Assembly: GCF_003991155.1 (NCBI RefSeq)
Contig: NZ_CP031293.1
From: Escherichia coli
GTDB taxonomy: Bacteria; Pseudomonadota; Gammaproteobacteria; Enterobacterales; Enterobacteriaceae
Length of the DNA stretch: 64,000 bases
Reading direction: 5' to 3' (one strand)
The position numbers and the translations under genes are program-made. Positions 7,321 through 60,961 of this stretch are shown in pieces. The notes beneath the pieces are model-generated. The model saw only the letters and a list, made by a program, of their open reading frames with translations. It did no database searches and had not been told where the DNA came from. The stretch's first letter is position 1. Every line of letters starts with the position of its first letter.

Positions 7321-10227
7321 ATGCCTTTTACACTTGGTCAACGCTGGATCAGCGATACAGAAAGCGAATTGGGACTTGGAACCGTTGTCGCGGTGGATGC
7401 GCGAACTGTCACTTTACTTTTCCCATCTACTGGTGAAAACCGTCTGTACGCACGCAGTGATTCCCCCGTGACCCGCGTGATGTTCAACCCTGGTGATACC
7501 ATTACCAGCCATGACGGCTGGCAGATGCAAGTCGAAGAAGTAAAAGAAGAAAATGGCTTGCTGACCTATATCGGTACTCGCCTGGATACTGAAGAGTCCG
7601 GCGTAGCCCTGCGTGAAGTTTTCCTTGATAGCAAACTGGTGTTCAGCAAACCGCAGGACCGTCTGTTTGCCGGGCAGATTGACCGTATGGACCGCTTTGC
7701 GCTGCGTTATCGCGCGCGTAAGTATTCCAGCGAACAGTTCCGTATGCCGTACAGCGGCCTGCGCGGTCAGCGTACCAGCCTGATCCCCCATCAGCTCAAC
7801 ATCGCTCATGATGTTGGTCGCCGCCACGCGCCGCGCGTCCTGTTGGCTGACGAAGTGGGTTTAGGGAAAACCATTGAAGCCGGGATGATCCTGCATCAGC
7901 AACTGCTCTCTGGCGCTGCTGAACGTGTGCTGATTATCGTCCCGGAAACCTTACAGCATCAGTGGCTGGTAGAAATGCTGCGCCGTTTCAACCTGCGCTT
8001 TGCTCTGTTTGATGATGAGCGTTATGCCGAAGCTCAGCACGATGCTTACAACCCGTTCGACACCGAACAGCTGGTGATTTGCTCGCTGGATTTTGCCCGT
8101 CGTAGCAAACAGCGTCTGGAACATCTCTGTGAAGCCGAATGGGACCTGCTGGTGGTCGATGAAGCCCATCACCTGGTGTGGAGCGAAGATGCGCCGAGCC
8201 GCGAATATCAGGCCATTGAACAACTGGCAGAGCACGTGCCGGGCGTTCTGCTGCTGACCGCAACCCCGGAACAACTGGGGATGGAAAGCCACTTCGCCCG
8301 TCTGCGTCTGCTGGACCCGAACCGTTTCCACGATTTTGCGCAATTCGTTGAAGAGCAGAAAAATTATCGTCCGGTTGCGGACGCCGTTGCCATGCTGCTG
8401 GCAGGTAACAAACTGAGCAATGATGAACTGAACATGCTCGGTGAGATGATCGGCGAGCAGGATATCGAGCCGCTGTTGCAAGCAGCAAACAGCGACAGCG
8501 AAGATGCACAGAGCGCCCGTCAGGAGCTGGTTTCGATGCTGATGGATCGCCACGGCACCAGCCGCGTGCTGTTCCGTAACACGCGTAACGGTGTGAAAGG
8601 CTTCCCGAAACGCGAGCTGCACACCATTAAGCTGCCGCTGCCGACACAGTATCAGACGGCTATTAAAGTCTCCGGCATTATGGGCGCACGCAAAAGTGCG
8701 GAAGACCGCGCTCGCGATATGCTCTACCCGGAGCGTATTTATCAGGAATTTGAAGGTGATAACGCCACCTGGTGGAACTTCGATCCGCGCGTTGAGTGGC
8801 TGATGGGCTACCTGACCAGCCATCGCTCTCAGAAAGTGCTGGTGATCTGTGCCAAAGCTGCCACTGCGCTGCAACTGGAGCAGGTACTGCGCGAACGTGA
8901 AGGTATTCGCGCCGCGGTGTTCCACGAAGGCATGTCGATAATCGAACGTGACCGCGCTGCCGCCTGGTTTGCTGAAGAAGACACCGGTGCGCAGGTACTG
9001 CTGTGCTCGGAAATCGGTTCTGAAGGACGTAACTTCCAGTTCGCCAGCCACATGGTGATGTTTGACCTGCCATTCAACCCGGATCTGCTGGAGCAGCGTA
9101 TTGGGCGTCTGGATCGTATCGGCCAGGCGCACGATATTCAGATCCATGTGCCTTATCTGGAGAAAACTGCTCAGTCGGTGCTGGTGCGCTGGTATCACGA
9201 AGGTCTGGATGCATTCGAGCACACCTGCCCGACCGGACGCACTATTTACGATAGCGTATACAACGATCTGATTAACTATCTGGCTTCACCGGATCAAACC
9301 GAAGGCTTTGACGATCTGATCAAAAACTGCCGTGAGCAACATGAAGCGCTGAAAGCACAGCTGGAACAGGGTCGTGACCGCCTGCTGGAAATCCATTCCA
9401 ACGGTGGCGAAAAAGCCCAGGCACTGGCAGAAAGCATTGAAGAGCAGGATGACGATACCAACCTGATCGCCTTCGCCATGAATCTGTTCGATATTATCGG
9501 TATCAATCAGGACGATCGCGGCGACAACATGATCGTACTGACGCCGTCCGATCATATGCTGGTGCCGGACTTCCCTGGCTTGTCGGAAGATGGCATCACC
9601 ATCACCTTTGATCGTGAAGTGGCGCTGGCGCGTGAAGATGCGCAGTTTATTACCTGGGAACATCCGCTGATCCGCAACGGTCTGGATCTGATCCTTTCTG
9701 GCGATACCGGTAGCAGCACGATTTCACTGTTGAAAAACAAAGCGTTGCCGGTAGGTACGCTGTTGGTGGAACTGATTTACGTGGTCGAAGCCCAGGCTCC
9801 GAAGCAGTTGCAGCTCAACCGCTTCCTGCCACCGACGCCGGTACGTATGCTGCTGGATAAAAACGGCAACAACCTGGCGGCGCAGGTGGAGTTTGAAACC
9901 TTTAACCGTCAGCTTAACGCGGTTAACCGTCACACCGGCAGCAAACTGGTTAACGCCGTGCAGCAGGATGTTCACGCTATCCTTCAGCTGGGTGAAGCAC
10001 AGATCGAGAAATCTGCCCGTGCACTGATTGATGCCGCACGTAACGAAGCCGACGAAAAACTGTCTGCCGAGCTGTCTCGTCTGGAAGCTCTGCGTGCAGT
10101 GAACCCGAACATTCGTGACGACGAACTGACCGCCATTGAGAGCAACCGTCAGCAGGTAATGGAAAGCCTGGATCAGGCAGGCTGGCGTCTGGATGCCCTG
10201 CGTTTGATCGTTGTAACGCATCAGTAA
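7321..10227 (+). CDS. rapA: RNA polymerase-associated Swi2/Snf2 ATPase RapA (HepA)
   Basis: 968-aa ORF beginning [25 protein letters not shown]; Walker A LGKT and DEAH box. Confidence 0.96.
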
Positions 10228-50420: not shown

Positions 50421-50727
50421 GTCTGGCTCAAAACAGTGAAAATCGTCCGAGTATACCTTGTACAGCGGTCAAGGTTAACCGGCGATTGAGTACCGAAATC
50501 AGAAAGAAGTGGCTTTTCATTGCCATGGCGCAAATCACGGGAAGAAACTGACCGCCTGCTGCAATTTTTATCGCGGAAAAGCTGTATTCACACCCCGCAA
50601 GCTGGTAGAATCCTGCGCCATCACTACGTAACGAGTGCCGGCACATTAACGGCGCTTATTTGCACAAATCCATTGACAAAAGAAGGCTAAAAGGGCATAT
50701 TCCTCGGCCTTTGAATTGTCCATATAG

Positions 50728-51012
<285 letters not shown>

Positions 51013-51037
51013 TTGCCAATTTGCTGAAGCTTTGTGA

Positions 51038-51066
51038 AAAAGCCCGCGCAAGCGGGTTTTTTTATG
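51038..51066 (+). terminator. rpsT rho-independent terminator
   Basis: AAAAGCCCGCGCAAGCGGGTTTTTTTA. Confidence 0.85.
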
Positions 51067-51419
51067 CCTGCACGCCTGGAAATTTCAAATGAAAGGCATA
51101 TCTCTTTTACTTATTTCTGCCGCCATATATTTCCCCAAGTATAAAACATTTAACATTTCATCATAAAAGTTAAAATGTTTTATTCTCTGATAAAACGTGA
51201 ACTGCATAACAAAATACAGAGAAACAAAGCCAAAAACGAATTAACGCAAACTTAAAACGAAAAATTATAATTGTCGCCATCACTCTCCTTAACTAACCTC
51301 ATTCCCACAACGTTGTTTAAATCATTAATAAATATGCATTAAGGAAAGTCAGTATGTATTTGCTTAGAAAATAAAAGCTTTTTTTCTGAGACAGGCATTC
51401 TTGTTCTGGAGAGAATATA

Positions 51420-52793
51420 ATGAGTTCCGTCATTGAAACTACTCAATCAACTTCATCCGATTCCTTACCTTTAATACAGCGGATTAGCTACGGCTCACTG
51501 GATGTTGCCGGTAATCTGCTCTACTGTTTTGGCTCTACCTACATTCTTTATTTCTACACCGACGTAGCAGGGATTAGTCTGGCGGTTGCAGGCATAATCC
51601 TACTGCTGGCGCGCATTGTAGACGGTATTGATGCGCCAGTGTGGGGAATCATTATCGATAAAACCCATTCGCGTTATGGAAAATGCCGTCCATGGTTTTT
51701 ATGGTTACCATTACCTTTTGCTGTATTTAGTGCGCTTTCTTTCTGGTCACCCGATATCAGCATGACAGGGAAAGCTGTTTATGCAGCAATATCGTACATG
51801 TTAGCCAGCATTCTGTTCACTGGGTTGAATACACCATTAAGCGCTATATTACCGCTGATGACGCTGTCACCAAAGGAACGCCTGGTATTAAACTCATATC
51901 GCATGACTGGTGGGCAAATTGGCGTACTATTAATGAATGCGACAGCATTGCCATTGGTCGCTTTCCTTGGTAATGGTAACGATAAAGCAGGCTTTATATA
52001 TACTGCCATAGTCTTTGCCGTAATATCCTGTGCCTTAACGTTGTTTGCCTTTAAAAATATTCGCGAACTGGATACCGATAAAATACAGCAAGAACCACGA
52101 CTGCCGATGAAAAAGAGTTTTTCGGCAATGAAAGGGAACTGGCCGTGGCTCCTGATGGTAGTGGCGAACCTTATCTTCTGGATTGCCCTACAGCAGCGCA
52201 ACACTACTATTGTTTACTATTTAACCTACAATCTGGATCGCAAAGATCTGGTCCCGCTGGTTAACAGCCTCGCCACCATTCAGATCCTGTTTATCATTGC
52301 CATTCCGTTCTTCAGTCGCTATCTCACCAAAACCTGGATTTGGATTACCGGGCTGCTGGTTGCGATGTTAGGCGGGGGCCTCATGTGGCTGGCTGCCGAC
52401 AGCATCCCTTTGATGATCGCCGCCTGGGTACTCGCCAATATCGGCAGCGGTATCGCCTGTTCTATGCCTTTCGCGATGCTCGGTTTCGCCGTTGACTTTG
52501 GTCGCTGGAAAACCGGCATTAAAGCTACCGGCATTCTGATCGCCTTCGGCAGCACCTTCTGCATCAAGATGGGCAGTGGTATCGGTACAGCTTTCGCTGC
52601 CTTTATTATGGACAGCTTTGGTTATATCCCCAACCAACAACAGACGGCTGCGGGGTTGGAAGGTATCAGCCTGGCATTTATCTGGGTCCCTGCGCTGCTC
52701 TTTGCTCTCGCGGCTGTACCACTGCTCTTCTTTCGCCAGTATGAAGCGATGGAAGGTCGTATCCAACACGATCTGCAAGCCCACAATCGTTGA
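51420..52793 (+). CDS. GPH-family (glycoside-pentoside-hexuronide:cation symporter) sugar transporter, accessory
   Basis: 457-aa polytopic ORF with MelB/YicJ-like N-terminus; not part of the K-12 rpsT–nhaR region as I recall it. Confidence 0.8.
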   Translation: MSSVIETTQSTSSDSLPLIQRISYGSLDVAGNLLYCFGSTYILYFYTDVAGISLAVAGIILLLARIVDGIDAPVWGIIIDKTHSRYGKCRPWFLWLPLPFAVFSALSFWSPDISMTGKAVYAAISYMLASILFTGLNTPLSAILPLMTLSPKERLVLNSYRMTGGQIGVLLMNATALPLVAFLGNGNDKAGFIYTAIVFAVISCALTLFAFKNIRELDTDKIQQEPRLPMKKSFSAMKGNWPWLLMVVANLIFWIALQQRNTTIVYYLTYNLDRKDLVPLVNSLATIQILFIIAIPFFSRYLTKTWIWITGLLVAMLGGGLMWLAADSIPLMIAAWVLANIGSGIACSMPFAMLGFAVDFGRWKTGIKATGILIAFGSTFCIKMGSGIGTAFAAFIMDSFGYIPNQQQTAAGLEGISLAFIWVPALLFALAAVPLLFFRQYEAMEGRIQHDLQAHNR

Positions 52794-52832
52794 ATTTAAT
52801 CAACATGCCACTTGCTCCTGGGAGGAACAATT

Positions 52833-54872
52833 ATGTCGTTTATTAAGCAAGATCCCCACCGTCTGGTCTGGCAACAAGACGATCGTTATCTCTGGATTGA
52901 AGCCTGGGGCGAAAACAGCTTACGCGTGCGAAGCGGCCGCCATTTACCGGTAATGCGCAATGAAAACTGGGCGTTAACTCAGGATCCTGGCGATGCTGTC
53001 GCTCATATCACCTGGGATGAAAAACAGGCAACGCTGAGAAATGGTAAAATCACTGCCATCGTAAATCTTCAGGGCCAGCTCTCTTTCTGGCGTAATGATG
53101 ATAAATGCCTGCTGCAAGAGTTCTGGCGTCAACGTGGCGAAATTGGTGAAGATGAGTCAGCACACGGCCAATATGTGAGCGCTCTTAATCTACAGGCCCG
53201 TGAATTCAAGCCTATTCCTGGCGGGAAATTTACGATTAAGGCACGATTTGAAGCCAACGATGGCGAGAAACTCTTTGGCATGGGTCAGTATCAGCAACCA
53301 AACCTGGATTTAAAAGGTTGCATGCTGGAGCTGGCACAACGTAACTCGCAGGCTTCTGTTCCCTTCCTGCTATCAAATCAGGGTTATGGTTTTCTGTGGA
53401 ATAACCCAGCAATTGGCCGCGTCACCTTCGCGCAAAACGGTACGGAATGGGTAGCAGAAGTCAGTGAACAACTGGACTACTGGATCACTGCGGGCGATAC
53501 TCCGGCTGAGATCAGTGAAGCCTATGCACGAGTAACCGGTACGCCACCGATGATGCCTGATTACGCAATGGGGTTCTGGCAATGCAAGCTTCGCTATCGT
53601 AATCAACAAGAATTGTTAGAAGTCGCACGCGGCTACAAGCAACGCAATCTTCCGATCTCGGTGATTGTCATCGATTTCTTCCATTGGCCGAATCAGGGTG
53701 ACTGGATGTTCGATCTGCGTGACTGGCCCGATCCCGATGCGATGATCGCCGAATTAAAAGAAATGGGTATCGAACTGATGGTTTCATTCTGGCCTACCGT
53801 AGATAACCGTACCGAGAGTTATCGGGAGATGAAAGAAAACGGCTGGCTAGTCCACACCGAGCGTGGTTTGCCTATCAATATGGATTTCCTTGGCAACACC
53901 ACGTTCTTTGATGCGACACATCCTGGCGCACGGGAATATGTCTGGAACAAAGCCAAACGCAATTATTACGATAAAGGCGTGAAACTGTTCTGGCTGGATG
54001 AAGCCGAGCCAGAGTTCGGTGTTTACGATTATGACAACTATCGTTACTACGCAGGGCCAGTGCTGGAAGTCGGTAATATCTATCCGCGTATGTACGCCAA
54101 AACGTTCTTCGATGGCATGCAGGCAGCCGGAGAAAAGCAGGTGATCAATTTGCTACGCTGCGCCTGGGCCGGTAGTCAGAAATATGGTGCCCTGGTGTGG
54201 TCAGGCGATATCCACTCCTCCTTCCGTTCTCTGCGCAATCAGTTTGCTGCGGGGCTGAACATGGGAATTGCCGGGATCCCGTGGTGGACGACGGATATTG
54301 GCGGTTTCCACGGTGGCAACATACATGATCCAAAATTTCATGAACTGCTTATTCGCTGGTTCCAGTGGGGGGTATTCAGCCCAGTAATGCGTTTACATGG
54401 CAACCGCGACCCGCAAGTTTTGCCTGAACAACCCTATCGTGATGGCATCGCACAATGTCCGACTGGCGCGCCGAATGAAGTCTGGAGCTATGGTGAAGAA
54501 ACCGGTGAAATTCTCACTTCCTGCCTGCAGTTGCGTGAGAAGCTGAAACCTTATATCAGTAAAATTATGGCTGAGACGCACGAGAAGAACAGCCCGGTAA
54601 TGCGCACGATGTTCTTTGAGTTTCCAGACCAGGCAGAAAGCTGGAATATTTATGATCAGTACTGCTTTGGCCCGGACCTTCTCGTTGCCCCTGTAATGCA
54701 CGAAGGTACACGTTCACGTGATGTCTGGTTGCCTGCCGGAGAGACATGGATCGATTTTTATACCCATGAACACTACGCGGGTGGGCAAAAGCTTCATCAT
54801 TGCGCGCCGCTGCACCAGATACCGGTATTCATTCGTGAGAAAGGGAAATATCGCCAGTTATTACCCGTTTAA
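52833..54872 (+). CDS. Glycoside hydrolase family 31 (alpha-glucosidase / alpha-xylosidase-like), accessory
   Basis: ORF-track frame 52812-54872; start placed at the ATG after SD GGGAGGA (MSFIKQDPHRL); GH31-like FWLDEAEPE and WSGDI segments; 19 bp after the transporter. Confidence 0.8.
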   Translation: MSFIKQDPHRLVWQQDDRYLWIEAWGENSLRVRSGRHLPVMRNENWALTQDPGDAVAHITWDEKQATLRNGKITAIVNLQGQLSFWRNDDKCLLQEFWRQRGEIGEDESAHGQYVSALNLQAREFKPIPGGKFTIKARFEANDGEKLFGMGQYQQPNLDLKGCMLELAQRNSQASVPFLLSNQGYGFLWNNPAIGRVTFAQNGTEWVAEVSEQLDYWITAGDTPAEISEAYARVTGTPPMMPDYAMGFWQCKLRYRNQQELLEVARGYKQRNLPISVIVIDFFHWPNQGDWMFDLRDWPDPDAMIAELKEMGIELMVSFWPTVDNRTESYREMKENGWLVHTERGLPINMDFLGNTTFFDATHPGAREYVWNKAKRNYYDKGVKLFWLDEAEPEFGVYDYDNYRYYAGPVLEVGNIYPRMYAKTFFDGMQAAGEKQVINLLRCAWAGSQKYGALVWSGDIHSSFRSLRNQFAAGLNMGIAGIPWWTTDIGGFHGGNIHDPKFHELLIRWFQWGVFSPVMRLHGNRDPQVLPEQPYRDGIAQCPTGAPNEVWSYGEETGEILTSCLQLREKLKPYISKIMAETHEKNSPVMRTMFFEFPDQAESWNIYDQYCFGPDLLVAPVMHEGTRSRDVWLPAGETWIDFYTHEHYAGGQKLHHCAPLHQIPVFIREKGKYRQLLPV

Positions 54873-54892
54873 AGGACATCGTTTGTTCATTA

Positions 54893-54925
54893 GCACGCCC
54901 CGTATATAGCGGGGCGTGAGTTTTA
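54893..54925. terminator. Bidirectional terminator between the GH31 gene and nhaR
   Basis: ACGCCCC-GTATATAG-CGGGGCGT hairpin with flanking A/T runs. Confidence 0.7.
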
Positions 54926-54929
54926 ATAT

Positions 54930-55835
54930 CTATCGTGAGGCGGGAGAAAACAACGAAGAATAATCCGTATTGCAGATTCGCTGTACCGCCGGGTGCTGAA
55001 TCATCCGCTCAGCAAAAATAGCATGGTACTCTTCCATCACATTTTCGACGCGACCAATTTCTACGACAGTTTTATCGGCATAAAAGTCATATGCATAAAG
55101 CGTTGGGGCAACGAAGATTGCATTGTGCATCGCACCAAAAGCTTTCATCAACGCGGCATCATCAAACTCGCCGAGGATTTCTACGTTTAATCCCTGGGAG
55201 TTAAACCAGTTAAGCAATTTGCGCCCTAACATTGAACGTCGCCCAGGAATCAAAAGCCGCCGTTCTTCCAGACAAGCCGGGAACGGTTTTTCCGGTGGTG
55301 GATTTGTACACCAGAAACTCACGCCACATTCGCCAATTCTCACGGAGAACAGACCTTCCTGCTGCGTAGAATCTATCGGACAGTCGGAAATGATCATATC
55401 CAGTTTATGCTGACTTAATTGCTCCAGCAGCATTTCGTGGGTGGATTCGAAGCAGCGAAGATGAATCGGCTCGCCTTCTACCACTGCGGCGTTAAGTACG
55501 CTACTGACCAGGCGTTTAGAAAGTGCATCAGCCACGCCAACGTCAAACAATAAATTGGATTCTTTGCGATAGTTCACGATATCCAGCATTTCCTGGCTTA
55601 AGGTGAACATTTTATCGGCATAGCGATAGACCAGCTCTCCCAGCTCGCTGGGTTCGAGACCACGTCCCTTGCGCTTAAATAATTTGCCTTGCAGGCGCTC
55701 TTCCAGCGCCCGAATCTGTCCGGTAATGGTTTGTGGTGTTAAATAAAGCGCCTCCGCTGCGCCAACCACGGAACCTTCTTTATAGACATGCCAGAAGTAA
55801 TACAAGTGGTTGTAATTGATATGAGACATGCTCAT
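54930..55835 (-). CDS. nhaR: LysR-type regulator of nhaA
   Basis: ORF-track frame 54930-55853; start placed at [30 protein letters not shown], giving 301 aa. Confidence 0.95.
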
Positions 55836-57312: not shown

Positions 57313-58557
57313 CTATAGCTGTTTATTCCAGAGATGCTTGAAAATATCTAATGTTGAGACAACATTGGCAGGCGACATTCGGTTTAATGAGGGTAGAAAG
57401 GGATGAGCCTCCAGGAAGTTGATAAAACGAGTCGCGCTTGCTAACGTCGAATACCGCATTTCATTTGCTTTCTTGTTTCCTGTAAGGTTACAAACAGCCA
57501 TTGAATAATCACGGGCGGAAAATGTACGCCAAACATTATTTCTCACGCCACCACTCAAAAACAACCGCGGCGGCGTATCATAATGAGTCGTTTTCTCGCC
57601 GCGTTCTTTCACAAATGAAATATGGCACCGGCCTTGATGAATATGCTGTAAATTAGCCATTAGACAACCGCCTAATATAAAGCACTCGTGATCAAGGTAG
57701 TGTTGAATATTTATAGAATATGCTTCAGTCAGTGCTCTAACCAGTTCAAAATGGCGATACGCCGGAAGAACCGGTTTCACCAGCATCCCCGGATCGTTTT
57801 GATGTAATATCGCCCGACCATAATCAATATCAAATAAGGTATCACGCCGCATAGTAAGTAACTCCTTGCGTTGTACGTGATGCGCCAGTGTCCCTGGAGA
57901 CAAACGCTCTTCATAACTTGATGCATATTGATAATGCGACTCTACCGCTGATGAAGAATAATTTGTTGAAATAGCGACGACTCTACCGCTTTGTTCTTCT
58001 GCGGTAACAAGACTATAAAGATAGTTGTTACTACCGTTAAACTTTACGCGAAAAGCGCGGGTAGATAGAGAAATATCAGAAGCAGAAGAGTATTGGCAAC
58101 TTTCTTTATAGTTTACTTCCCGGGCTAGTTTCATCAACTCACGGTTAAGCCCTGTGCTATTAAGAAGTAATAATTTACGGATATCTGCAAGTGAAGCACC
58201 TTGATCAATCATCAATGCTAAATGTGTTCTTCGCGGCGTTGTATTTACATGATCCAGAGTGATAAAAGTTCTGGAACAATGATGACAATACATTCTCCTC
58301 TGCCCCTGAGCTGAATAGCCATACTTTTTCAGAGATGTGCTTCCGCAAGCTGGACATTGTGAAACCACCCCTCTCCATGAATGATTAACACGATTACGAT
58401 AAATATTAAGAGATCGTTCAGATATCACAGGAAACAAGTAACCGCATTCCCGACATAAAATATTTTTGCCTTGTGCAATATAATCCTGGCTATTCAACAA
58501 CCCCAGGTTTTTGCATCCTGGTGTTTTGCAACAATCAACATTTACGTTGGTAAACAT
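57313..58557 (-). CDS. Hypothetical Cys-rich protein with two N-terminal zinc-ribbon-like CxxC pairs (InsA-like finger), accessory
   Basis: ORF-track frame 57313-58593 (426 aa); start placed at the internal ATG with SD AGGGAG (MFTNVNVDCCKTPGC...), giving 414 aa; CRECG, CPACGSTSLKKYGYSAQGQRRMYCHHCSRTF; no CxxxCxxC radical-SAM motif. Confidence 0.6.
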   Translation of the reverse strand: MFTNVNVDCCKTPGCKNLGLLNSQDYIAQGKNILCRECGYLFPVISERSLNIYRNRVNHSWRGVVSQCPACGSTSLKKYGYSAQGQRRMYCHHCSRTFITLDHVNTTPRRTHLALMIDQGASLADIRKLLLLNSTGLNRELMKLAREVNYKESCQYSSASDISLSTRAFRVKFNGSNNYLYSLVTAEEQSGRVVAISTNYSSSAVESHYQYASSYEERLSPGTLAHHVQRKELLTMRRDTLFDIDYGRAILHQNDPGMLVKPVLPAYRHFELVRALTEAYSINIQHYLDHECFILGGCLMANLQHIHQGRCHISFVKERGEKTTHYDTPPRLFLSGGVRNNVWRTFSARDYSMAVCNLTGNKKANEMRYSTLASATRFINFLEAHPFLPSLNRMSPANVVSTLDIFKHLWNKQL

Positions 58558-58686
58558 ATTCACTCCCTGCGAATACCCGGATATTATCGTCATATGTCAA
58601 AGAAAAGAACCTGATTCAATGTGTAACATTGAATCAGGCGGGCATAGCCCTGAAAGGCATACATTACATTTATTATGGTTATCAGA

Positions 58687-60180
58687 TTAGCCCCAGGTTA
58701 CCGCTTCCGGTTTATCACCTCTGGCTTTCATTAATGAATCATTATCAATATCGGCTTTATACTTTAAGAACTTACCATACATTTGTTTTTCAATGTCTGG
58801 ATTTTTACCTATCTGATTAATGGTCTCAAAACGATCGGTTTTGAGGTTGTATAGGTACTTTGGCTTATTGTTACGATCGATGATCATTTTCCAGTCACCA
58901 TCACGTATCGCCCATTCGTCGGTTGGATCATCCTGGAATGGCATGTCAATTCCGAAGATTAATGGCTTTTCACGTTTTAGCGCTTTGTTCTCAAGGACAG
59001 GAACCAACGATTCGCCATCAAAAGTGCGGTCTGTCGGTAATTTGAAGTTCATCATTTTCGCCAGCGTAGGCATCCAGTCCAGCCCATAAACAGGCGTATC
59101 TGAAACCATTCCCTTTGGAAGATGCTTTCCGTATTTAATAATCGCCGGAACACGGATGCCACCTTCCCAGAGATTATCCTTGCGACCACGTAATCCATCA
59201 GTTTCCCCTGCCAAATTCAGTTCATAAACTTTACGTGCTTCACGGGTTACTGGGCCGTTATCACTGGTAAAAATAACGATGGTGTTATCTTCTTCACCCA
59301 TCGCTTTGATTTTATCCAGTACTTTTCCAACCTGAGCATCCAGATAACTGATGTTGGCATAATATTCTCCTGGACCACGCCAGGGTTTATCCGCCCAGTC
59401 GCCATAAAATAAATCAGGATGCTGCTTCTGATATTCGCTCATATATTGTGAGTACATGTCGAGGTATTTTTTGGGCGAAGCCAGGGGACTGTGCACTTCG
59501 GTAAAAGCGACATAAAGGAAGAAAGGCTTACTGTCCTTTTTGTTATCCAACCAGTTGACGACTTCCGAACTGACATACTCACCACTCATTTTATCGGAAC
59601 GTGGTGTGGGTTGCCCGTTACGCAACCAGCCCGTTGGATAGACCATGCCAAAACGGGGACGCTCCTTCGCATTATCCAGAGTAGCGTCGGTAACAAAACC
59701 CGCCGTATTAACCAGTGAGTAATCAAAGCCCATATCTTTTGCCTGCGGCTGATCGGTGCGATCGCCGCCTGCATTCAGATGCAGCTTACCCATCATGGCC
59801 GTGTCGTACCCTTGCGCTTTGAGTAGATTAGCAATCGTGAGTTCATTACGCCCTAATGCCACATCTTTTCCCGTTGGGATCCATGAGCGTATGCCGGTAC
59901 GAAATGGCATCCGCCCTGTTAATAGTCCCGCCCGTGAAGGAGAACTTAAGGGGGCAGGTGCATAATAGTCGGTAAATTTGACGCCTTCCTGGGCAAGCCT
60001 GTCTATATTGGGCGTTTTAACGATCTGATGTCCATATGTTGCCAAATCACCATAGCCTAAATCATCCGCCATAATGATGACTAAATTGGGTTGTTTAGTT
60101 TCGGCGGCTACGGCTGGATTAAAAGCATTCCCTGTGCAAACTGCAAGGCCGATCAAACTGGCCATTAATGTTTTCTGCAT
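58687..60180 (-). CDS. Ser-type sulfatase (periplasmic), accessory
   Basis: ORF-track frame 58687-60216; start placed at MQKTLMASLIGLAVC (signal peptide), giving 497 aa; sulfatase signature SSPSRAGLLTGR with Ser at the formylglycine position; IIMADDLGYGD N-terminal motif. Confidence 0.85.
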   Translation of the reverse strand: MQKTLMASLIGLAVCTGNAFNPAVAAETKQPNLVIIMADDLGYGDLATYGHQIVKTPNIDRLAQEGVKFTDYYAPAPLSSPSRAGLLTGRMPFRTGIRSWIPTGKDVALGRNELTIANLLKAQGYDTAMMGKLHLNAGGDRTDQPQAKDMGFDYSLVNTAGFVTDATLDNAKERPRFGMVYPTGWLRNGQPTPRSDKMSGEYVSSEVVNWLDNKKDSKPFFLYVAFTEVHSPLASPKKYLDMYSQYMSEYQKQHPDLFYGDWADKPWRGPGEYYANISYLDAQVGKVLDKIKAMGEEDNTIVIFTSDNGPVTREARKVYELNLAGETDGLRGRKDNLWEGGIRVPAIIKYGKHLPKGMVSDTPVYGLDWMPTLAKMMNFKLPTDRTFDGESLVPVLENKALKREKPLIFGIDMPFQDDPTDEWAIRDGDWKMIIDRNNKPKYLYNLKTDRFETINQIGKNPDIEKQMYGKFLKYKADIDNDSLMKARGDKPEAVTWG

Positions 60181-60199
60181 AATTATTCCCTGATGAAAA

Positions 60200-60961
60200 T
60201 TAGAAATCATAACCAAGCATATAAATCATTTGATCGCCAAAACCATCGTAGCCCAACTTATTATCGAAATAACGCCACGTCACACTGGCTTTCCAGCGAG
60301 GATAGAACTTCCAGGCCACTGTTAAACCGCCATTTAGCCCATTCCGACCAAATTGTTGTTCCGCATAGGCATCATTTCTGTCCAGTTCTATTTCATTCCA
60401 GTTAGATAAAACAAATTTTTCGTCAAATAACGTAAAAGGTAATACTGCTGTCCAGCCAACAACATAACCATTCCAGCCATTTGTTTGTCCATATTTGGCT
60501 GAGACGTAGTCTCCAGATTGATTATGCAATCCAATATACGGTTTAAAAAACCCCCATGAACCATTCCAGCCGAGGTAGCCCAAACCATAAAACATATCAA
60601 GATCGTCACCCCATGAGTTATCCCATTGACCATAGATCTTGCCAAAGAAAGTCATATTGGAGTCAAAGAGTCTGACATGTGTCATAGCAGAAACGGTATG
60701 ATTACGCCCCGCTACGGCATGGTTAAGCACATTGCTTTCATAAAATGAGTAAAACTCGGCTTCTTTAAAATTCACACCAAAGTCTGCAGTCACTTTCCAT
60801 ACTTCACCACGATGAGTGTTAACGAAGCCACTATTCCAGTCAGCATAACCTGCATTTATTGAGCCAAAGGAACCTTTATATTCTAATGAAGAATATGCAG
60901 GAAGGTGATAGAAAATCGTTGTCAGGGCACACGCAATAAGAAGCCGTCTTTTGGCAGACAT
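60200..60961 (-). CDS. Tsx-like outer-membrane beta-barrel channel, accessory
   Basis: 253-aa ORF with signal peptide, W/Y/G/N-rich alternating segments, C-terminal aromatic (…LGYDF) typical of OM beta-barrels; resembles the Tsx C-terminus (…VGYNF). Confidence 0.65.
   Translation of the reverse strand: MSAKRRLLIACALTTIFYHLPAYSSLEYKGSFGSINAGYADWNSGFVNTHRGEVWKVTADFGVNFKEAEFYSFYESNVLNHAVAGRNHTVSAMTHVRLFDSNMTFFGKIYGQWDNSWGDDLDMFYGLGYLGWNGSWGFFKPYIGLHNQSGDYVSAKYGQTNGWNGYVVGWTAVLPFTLFDEKFVLSNWNEIELDRNDAYAEQQFGRNGLNGGLTVAWKFYPRWKASVTWRYFDNKLGYDGFGDQMIYMLGYDF

Follow-up and report, generated by a model that had tools for sequence, protein, structure and literature searches.

A probable alpha-D-xyloside utilisation operon of the MeXyl31 (GH31_4) type between rpsT and nhaR in Escherichia coli

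Between rpsT and nhaR in a 64,000-nucleotide stretch of an Escherichia coli chromosome (hereafter the window), two adjacent genes at 51067-54929 encode a transporter of the GPH family and an enzyme of glycoside hydrolase family 31 (GH31). We conclude that these genes probably form a functional operon for the utilisation of alpha-D-xylosides, additional to the core yicJ-yicI genes. A sequence-only reading of this DNA had described an intact two-gene unit between the rpsT terminator and nhaR, assigned its products to the GPH and GH31 families, and likened the pair to yicJ–yicI. The unit consists of two uninterrupted + strand open reading frames (ORFs), transporter then GH31 (from the ORF list and matching RefSeq loci), the products match both families, and the gene order agrees with that of yicJ–yicI. 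Our data establish directly that the genes are intact, that they belong to these families, that the catalytic residues are in place and that selection is purifying, as well as the synteny and the distribution of the unit.

The downstream gene encodes a GH31 protein with three recognisable domains, all scoring above their gathering thresholds: the TIM barrel (PF01055, 269.9 bits against a cutoff of 23.5; E 4.5e-80) and PF21365 (96.4 bits) and PF13802 (31.7 bits), which between them represent the flanking N-terminal beta-sandwich and the C-terminal domain. Its nearest solved relative is MeXyl31 (PDB 5ZN6), with which it aligns over residues 9-672 at 1035 bits and shares 428 of 664 positions (64%). 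The next PDB matches are all alpha-xylosidases (Aspergillus niger 6DRU, 7KMP, Bacteroides ovatus 5JOU and Cellvibrio japonicus 2XVG), and E. coli YicI trails at 166 bits. We located the nucleophile at D389, within the motif WLDEAEP (codon 53997-53999), and the acid/base at D459, within WSGDI (codon 54207-54209), and checked both codons. Both residues are the same in MeXyl31 and invariant in 17 homologues of 59-86% identity, so that the lack of catalytic aspartates, which would have refuted the earlier reading, does not apply. D459 aligns with D482 of YicI; D389 corresponds to YicI D416 on manual alignment of the GVxxFxxD motif, the BLAST alignment having misplaced a gap there. Based on these relationships, the enzyme is most likely an alpha-xylosidase. 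It probably belongs to subfamily GH31_4, a placement drawn indirectly from the 64% identity to MeXyl31 and from the GH31_4 members CjXyl31A and BoGH31 among the next PDB matches; MeXyl31 itself is assigned to GH31_4 in PMC10792220, from the same laboratory as the MeXyl31 characterisation. Reading the N-terminus of the GH31 protein, we found no hydrophobic stretch resembling a signal peptide, and the enzyme is therefore predicted to be cytoplasmic.

The upstream gene product matches Pfam MFS_2 (E 1.4e-77) and the TIGR00792 gph model (363.8 bits against a cutoff of 231.35), the latter over its full length, with residues 21-453 on profile positions 1-435 of 437. It also aligns with the MelB crystal structures from end to end. 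These matches place the transporter in the GPH family (TC 2.A.2), but none of the curated subgroup models that we compared claims it. It scores 173.6 bits on the YicJ orthologue model (NF008526, cutoff 836 bits), on which YicJ itself reaches 1056 bits, and 224 bits on the MelB-type melibiose permease model (NF007749, cutoff 456 bits), whose cation-site pattern is likewise not matched; it is also far under the curated cutoffs of the YagG and glucuronide transporter models. In transporter residues 67-75 (RIVDGIDAP, 51618-51644), the second carboxylate of the GPH signature has moved by one position, the motif being D-G-I-D-A-P here, D-A-I-N-D-P in MelB (within R-I-W-D-A-I-N-D-P) and D-A-I-S-D-P in YicJ. 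The cation site of MelB comprises D55, N58 and D59, and the displaced carboxylate may bear on cation coupling.

Together with the 64% identity to MeXyl31, gene neighbourhoods appear to narrow the substrate class to alpha-D-xylosides. Each of two transporter types is found next to each of two hydrolase types, giving four pairings. The window-type transporter accompanies a MeXyl31-type GH31 in this window, in Citrobacter, in Superficieibacter and on a metagenomic contig (L096; 62% and 56% identity), whereas a window-type transporter of 59% identity accompanies a YicI-type alpha-xylosidase at loci L092 and L097. The enzymes at these two loci are 58-59% identical to YicI, and that of L092 scores 1247 bits on the YicI equivalog model NF007940 (cutoff 606). 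A YicJ-like transporter (48% identical to YicJ, with NF008526 as its best NCBIfam model) is paired with a MeXyl31-type GH31 in Rahnella, Mixta, Enterobacter, Phytobacter and Pseudescherichia, and K-12 combines YicJ with YicI. Alpha-xylosides would be the simplest common denominator of the four pairings. Among the closest relatives of the transporter outside Enterobacteriaceae (59-62% identity), three of four have a GH31 partner, two of them YicI-type, with one NF007940 equivalog. In Firmicutes, the orthologous GH31 gene lies directly after a binding-protein ABC importer in about 45 of 68 loci. Wherever it occurs, the enzyme has an importer alongside it and few or no other hydrolases, which points to a small substrate and a single cleavage.

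Both genes are under strong purifying selection. Relative to the second E. coli allele, a Salmonella-like contig and C. rodentium, the ratio of nonsynonymous to synonymous divergence (dN/dS) is 0.03-0.06 for the transporter and 0.03-0.04 for the GH31 gene, at synonymous divergences (dS) exceeding 0.5-1. Intact reading frames and a dN/dS of about 0.03 led us to reject pseudogene status or decay. We likewise rejected a duplicate of yicJI. In the comparison with K-12 that the sequence-only reading had proposed, the hydrolases are 25% identical (679 versus 772 aa) and the transporters 29%, and both proteins fall under the equivalog cutoffs. The unit is thus an analogue of yicJ-yicI, and not the duplicated pseudogene that would have refuted the earlier reading. 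In E. coli 2016C-3878 (L004), an ISApl1 element of the IS30 family (8858-9937) splits the GH31 gene at a point equivalent to about 54560 of the window; that locus is otherwise 100% identical to the window and constitutes a natural GH31 knockout, usable as a control.

In this chromosome, the unit lies within the order ileS(-), ribF(-), yaaY(-), rpsT(+), transporter and GH31 genes, nhaR(-), nhaA(-) (Table 1). We adopted the GH31 start at the ATG that RefSeq also uses, although the longest ORF would begin at TTG 52812. A terminator scan found no terminator in the spacer between the two genes, and this short spacer with its ribosome-binding site fits a single transcript, as we predict for the pair. 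The rpsT terminator hairpin has an A-tract upstream and a U-tract downstream, with a fold energy of -17.3 kcal/mol (z -3.6). Between the convergent GH31 and nhaR genes lies a GC-rich hairpin of 10 bp, 12 nt from the nhaR stop codon, with a fold energy of -21 kcal/mol on the + strand (z -5.6) and -18 kcal/mol on the - strand. A short U-tract (AGUUUUAAUAU) follows this stem on the + strand only, while CUAAUGAAC follows it on the nhaR strand. The hairpin that had been described as a bidirectional terminator is therefore present, but its terminator form is one-sided.

Table 1. Features of the rpsT-nhaR interval, in window coordinates.
Feature	Position	Strand	Basis or detail
rpsT (30S ribosomal protein S20), left flank	50749..51012	+	ORF list; rpsT annotation in matching RefSeq loci
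rpsT terminator hairpin, bidirectional in form	51036..51063	.	sequence, fold energy, conservation in four genera
AT-rich upstream/leader region of the predicted operon	51067..51419	+	31% GC; alignments of 4 and 8 orthologous upstream regions
CRP-like site	51196-51211		CGTGAACTGCATAACA; left half TGTGA/CGTGA conserved across genera
Conserved AAAAACGAATTAACGCAA block	upstream region		alignment of eight regions
TATAAT/GATAAT element with invariant AATTG	51266-51275		-10-like TATAAT at 51266-51271
Conserved TTAACTA block	upstream region		alignment of eight regions
Leader block TGCTTAGAAAATAAAAGC...TTTTTCTGAG, also as TGCTTAGAAA..TTTTTCTG	51361-51390		about 30-60 nt upstream of the transporter start
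Shine-Dalgarno GGAGA	51408-51412		upstream of the transporter start
GPH-family (TC 2.A.2) sugar:cation symporter, 457 aa	51420..52793	+	Pfam, TIGR00792, MelB alignment, neighbourhoods
Intergenic spacer, 39 nt, Shine-Dalgarno GGGAGG at 52820-52825	52794..52832	+	sequence; terminator scan
GH31 glycoside hydrolase, 679 aa	52833..54872	+	Pfam domains, MeXyl31 match, catalytic residues
Terminator-like hairpin between convergent GH31 and nhaR	54894..54918	+	terminator scan; folding
nhaR (LysR-type activator), right flank, stop at 54930	54930..55829	-	ORF list; nhaR annotation in matching loci

We infer that the unit is specific for alpha-xylosides, that its genes are co-transcribed, how transport is oriented and coupled, and how the genes are regulated. 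The GPH symporter would use a cation gradient, most likely of protons, to import a small alpha-xyloside (disaccharide or glycoside). The cytoplasmic GH31 enzyme would then act as a retaining glycosidase, with D389 as nucleophile and D459 as acid/base, and its cleavage would release D-xylose and an aglycone into central metabolism. Transcription probably begins in the AT-rich stretch past the rpsT terminator and stops at the hairpin before nhaR. Because the ORF list contains no regulator gene in the unit or in its 353-bp upstream region, control would come from global factors; a weak CRP-like site is conserved, and silencing by H-NS is plausible.

Aligning eight orthologous upstream regions revealed a few conserved blocks within otherwise unalignable DNA (Table 1). 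Their roles are presumed, and none of the blocks is significant alone. The CRP-like site is a weak lead suggested by conservation of its left half-site across genera, and the leader block is found in E. coli, Citrobacter and the Salmonella-like contig. Two further candidates in the leader were set aside. A putative leader peptide, MYLLRK (51354-51374), which overlaps the leader block in E. coli, looked conserved in four sequences but is unsupported with eight regions, since the Citrobacter species have no start codon and Superficieibacter does not have the block. A leader hairpin of 8-9 bp (GCUUAGAAA...UUUCUGAG) forms in E. coli and C. werkmanii but is absent from the minimum-energy structure of C. 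rodentium, and its z-scores of -0.4 to -0.7 are not significant. An Rfam scan of 50600-55100 returned nothing near the gathering score of a known RNA element.

Several results weigh against a functional alpha-xyloside operon. On NF007940, the NCBIfam alpha-xylosidase equivalog model on which YicI itself scores 1433 bits, the GH31 protein reaches 246 of the 606 bits required by the cutoff. Both MeXyl31 and AxyC, a fungal GH31_4 enzyme, are described as good only on an artificial substrate, p-nitrophenyl (pNP)-alpha-xyloside, and as poor on isoprimeverose and xyloglucan oligosaccharides. Some relatives of the transporter, at 51-59% identity, are paired with GH36, GH127 or GH172 enzymes, and thus transporter specificity is not fixed across the subfamily. 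A sigma-70 promoter scan found nothing upstream of the transporter, and the CRP-like pattern, allowing the two mismatches seen at 51196, has 19 matches in the window where 25 are expected, no better than chance. With no regulator of its own and an upstream region of 31% GC, the operon may be silent under most conditions.

Two alternatives draw on these points. The same architecture could serve an enzyme that cleaves a different alpha-glycoside, such as an alpha-glucoside or alpha-galactoside, in keeping with the many specificities found within GH31, with the GH36, GH127 and GH172 partners, and with sub-threshold scores on NCBIfam alpha-glucosidase models (221 and 200 bits) that lie near the alpha-xylosidase score. 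We regard this as quite improbable, given that the five best solved relatives are all alpha-xylosidases and that GH31 enzymes, including YicI-type ones, partner most of the nearest transporter relatives outside Enterobacteriaceae. Moreover, active-site residue D281 is followed by F-F, where the alignment with YicI shows C-F and where I-D is said to be typical of alpha-glucosidases. That the unit is a cryptic or decaying remnant seems very remote. The missing regulator, the empty promoter scan and the ISApl1 insertion in an otherwise identical strain would suit such a remnant, but the window and hundreds of genomes have both frames uninterrupted, dN/dS is low, and the catalytic residues are invariant.

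If the unit is indeed an alpha-xyloside operon, it could still be redundant, with the same natural substrate as YicJ-YicI, namely isoprimeverose or xyloglucan oligosaccharides. Plant xyloglucan fragments are abundant in the gut, and the bacterial GH31_4 enzymes CjXyl31A and BoGH31, as well as Xanthomonas XylS, are reported to be specific for xyloglucan oligosaccharides. Other observations make redundancy rather unlikely. According to PMC10792220, MeXyl31 cleaves pNP-alpha-D-xylopyranoside well but isoprimeverose and xyloglucan oligosaccharides poorly, showing no preference for either of these two. The GH31 protein of the window does not have the PA14 insert associated with large-oligosaccharide binding, its 679 aa comparing with 955-1020 aa for the enzymes specific for xyloglucan oligosaccharides. 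Finally, 5393 of 5426 complete E. coli genomes (99%) carry yicJI, so that the unit represents an extra system instead of a replacement; purifying selection on the unit persists nonetheless, which argues for a non-identical role.

We had considered isoprimeverose as the predicted substrate and dropped it in view of the MeXyl31 results. PMC10792220 states that unknown alpha-xylosyl substrates probably exist for MeXyl31-like enzymes. We raise, as a speculative and rather doubtful proposal, that MeXyl31-type enzymes with dedicated importers target a specific alpha-xyloside other than isoprimeverose. Candidates may include an alpha-1,3-linked xyloside of host O-glucose glycans or of matriglycan, or a dietary plant alpha-xylosyl glycoside. 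Gut Enterobacteriaceae and Lachnospiraceae/Oscillospiraceae share such enzymes, each with its dedicated importer, at 56-64% identity, and E. coli keeps one beside YicJI. Should the proposal be true, the unit would define a new nutrient niche that sets lineages like ST131 apart from other members of the species.

We found the unit in 639 of 5426 complete E. coli genomes (about 12%), ST131 included; it is chromosomal in all of them. The window's allele (at least 99% identity) accounts for 73 of these genomes, and an allele of about 87% identity, typified by ST131 strains such as JJ1886, for the other 566. In hundreds of E. coli genomes, RefSeq labels the products "MFS transporter" and "glycoside hydrolase family 31 protein". 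An identical arrangement, rpsT / transporter / GH31 / nhaR, is also found in C. rodentium, C. werkmanii, C. youngae, Citrobacter sp. FP75, Superficieibacter electus and a Salmonella-like contig (L007), and because it is shared across genera, we consider the unit ancestral at this site in the Escherichia/Citrobacter group. STM0041 (for the GH31 gene) and STM0042 are putative counterparts in Salmonella LT2. One paper lists STM0041 among Salmonella hydrolase genes gathering truncations in Paratyphi A, which would suit a decaying remnant.

Within E. coli, the rpsT-nhaR interval is a replacement hotspot. The site is empty in NU14, with about 95 bp between rpsT and nhaR (L003, 2314-2408), while O157:H7 carries the type III secretion system effector gene espX1 and a four-gene chaperone-usher fimbrial operon (L091, 4521-10945). 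K-12 carries IS1A and the last 138 nt of a fimbrial gene (L002, 2620-3470), in agreement with the IS1 copy and small pseudogene remnants named in the sequence-only reading. Where the unit is present, its E. coli alleles are mosaic. Compared with strain 2547 (L001), the window shows about 83% nucleotide identity and a dS of 1.1-1.2 from the rpsT terminator to about 53680 (51000-53680), and 93-99% identity and a dS of 0.28 from there on (53680-55480), so that the breakpoint falls within the GH31 gene. The neighbouring ribF has a dS of 0.044; against that value, the left part suggests that homologous recombination with a distant, unsampled relative probably supplied a segment of one or both alleles. 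Each of the two is still nearer to the other than to the Salmonella-like or the C. rodentium sequence.

The contrast with K-12 might suggest that this strain gained the unit recently, as a genomic islet at the rpsT-nhaR site; that would account for the patchy distribution in E. coli, the AT-rich upstream region, the alternative cargo at the site and the high dS over the left two-thirds of the unit. The identical gene order in Citrobacter species, Superficieibacter and the Salmonella-like contig makes such an origin unlikely, as does the absence of mobility genes from 51067-54929 and of plasmid copies; the unit does not qualify as a mobile genomic island. The coding GC content of 48-50% is also close to the window average of 52%. 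No border repeats turned up, although no dedicated search for them was made. The most parsimonious history has the unit present ancestrally and then repeatedly lost or replaced in most E. coli, with exchange of alleles by homologous recombination.

Beyond nhaA, the window contains a further segment that varies among strains. The - strand ORF at 57313-58593 (426 aa) has no Pfam match and is hypothetical in RefSeq; its only recognisable feature is an N-terminal zinc-binding domain of the IS1/IS1595 type (NCBIfam NF050000, E 3.5e-9). Here, in 2547 and in 2016C-3878, it is flanked by nhaA and a sulfatase gene, and in NU14 it adjoins nhaA, whereas K-12 and O157 carry mokC in its place. By position, the - strand ORFs at 58687-60961 match genes for a sulfatase-family protein and OmpK at the locus of 2016C-3878, which is 100% identical; they form an accessory segment near nhaA that is absent from K-12. 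On the Salmonella-like contig, a sulfatase, a radical-SAM/SPASM maturase and an arylsulfotransferase are found beyond nhaA.

The unit is an ordinary accessory sugar-utilisation operon, already generically annotated in hundreds of genomes. What our analysis adds is to turn two generic RefSeq labels into a testable prediction, that of a second system for alpha-xyloside uptake and hydrolysis, of the MeXyl31 (GH31_4) type. E. coli would offer a convenient genetic host in which to seek the natural substrate of the MeXyl31 clade, and the locus serves as an example of a small hotspot of replacement between rpsT and nhaR.

Among known systems, yicJ-yicI of K-12 has the most similar layout: a GPH transporter gene comes first and a GH31 gene second, on the same strand and with a short gap, the two families are the same, and the predicted logic of import followed by cytoplasmic alpha-xyloside hydrolysis is shared. 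However, the proteins are distant paralogues, yicJI is core whereas the unit is accessory, and the GH31 enzyme here is of the MeXyl31 type (probably GH31_4), while YicI belongs to a different alpha-xylosidase clade. The closest characterised enzyme is MeXyl31 (PDB 5ZN6/5ZN7), which has the same length, the same three-domain architecture and identical WLDEAEP and WSGDI motifs; it came from a fosmid library of a soil metagenome.

The combination of a GPH-type transporter with a GH31 alpha-xylosidase also recalls xylP-xylQ of Lactiplantibacillus pentosus. XylP reportedly transports isoprimeverose, and the xyl operon is said to be under XylR control. XylQ, cited as an alpha-xylosidase in PMC12144081, falls in the YicI clade and not in the MeXyl31 clade; a link to this system nevertheless exists in the 59% relatives of the window-type transporter, which partner YicI/XylQ-type enzymes. 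As judged from these comparisons, the unit would operate in the manner of YicJI and XylPQ, pairing a GPH importer with a cytoplasmic GH31 alpha-xylosidase, but belongs to neither orthologous group.

Another parallel is the ABC operon of Firmicutes (Lachnospiraceae/Oscillospiraceae), in which an orthologous GH31 gene (56-62% identity) lies immediately downstream of a dedicated sugar importer. Unlike the E. coli unit, this operon has a binding-protein-dependent ABC importer, with genes for a histidine kinase and an AraC-type response regulator ahead of it; a second GH31 paralogue and a DUF624 protein are also frequently present. Across the Firmicutes loci (L021-L090), a second GH31 gene of the same clade (about 689 aa) is nearby in 14 and directly follows the first in 7 (e.g., at +1 in L041 and L083), and a DUF624 membrane protein follows in 9. 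Two such enzymes in tandem tentatively suggest a substrate that contains alpha-xylosidic linkages of two kinds.

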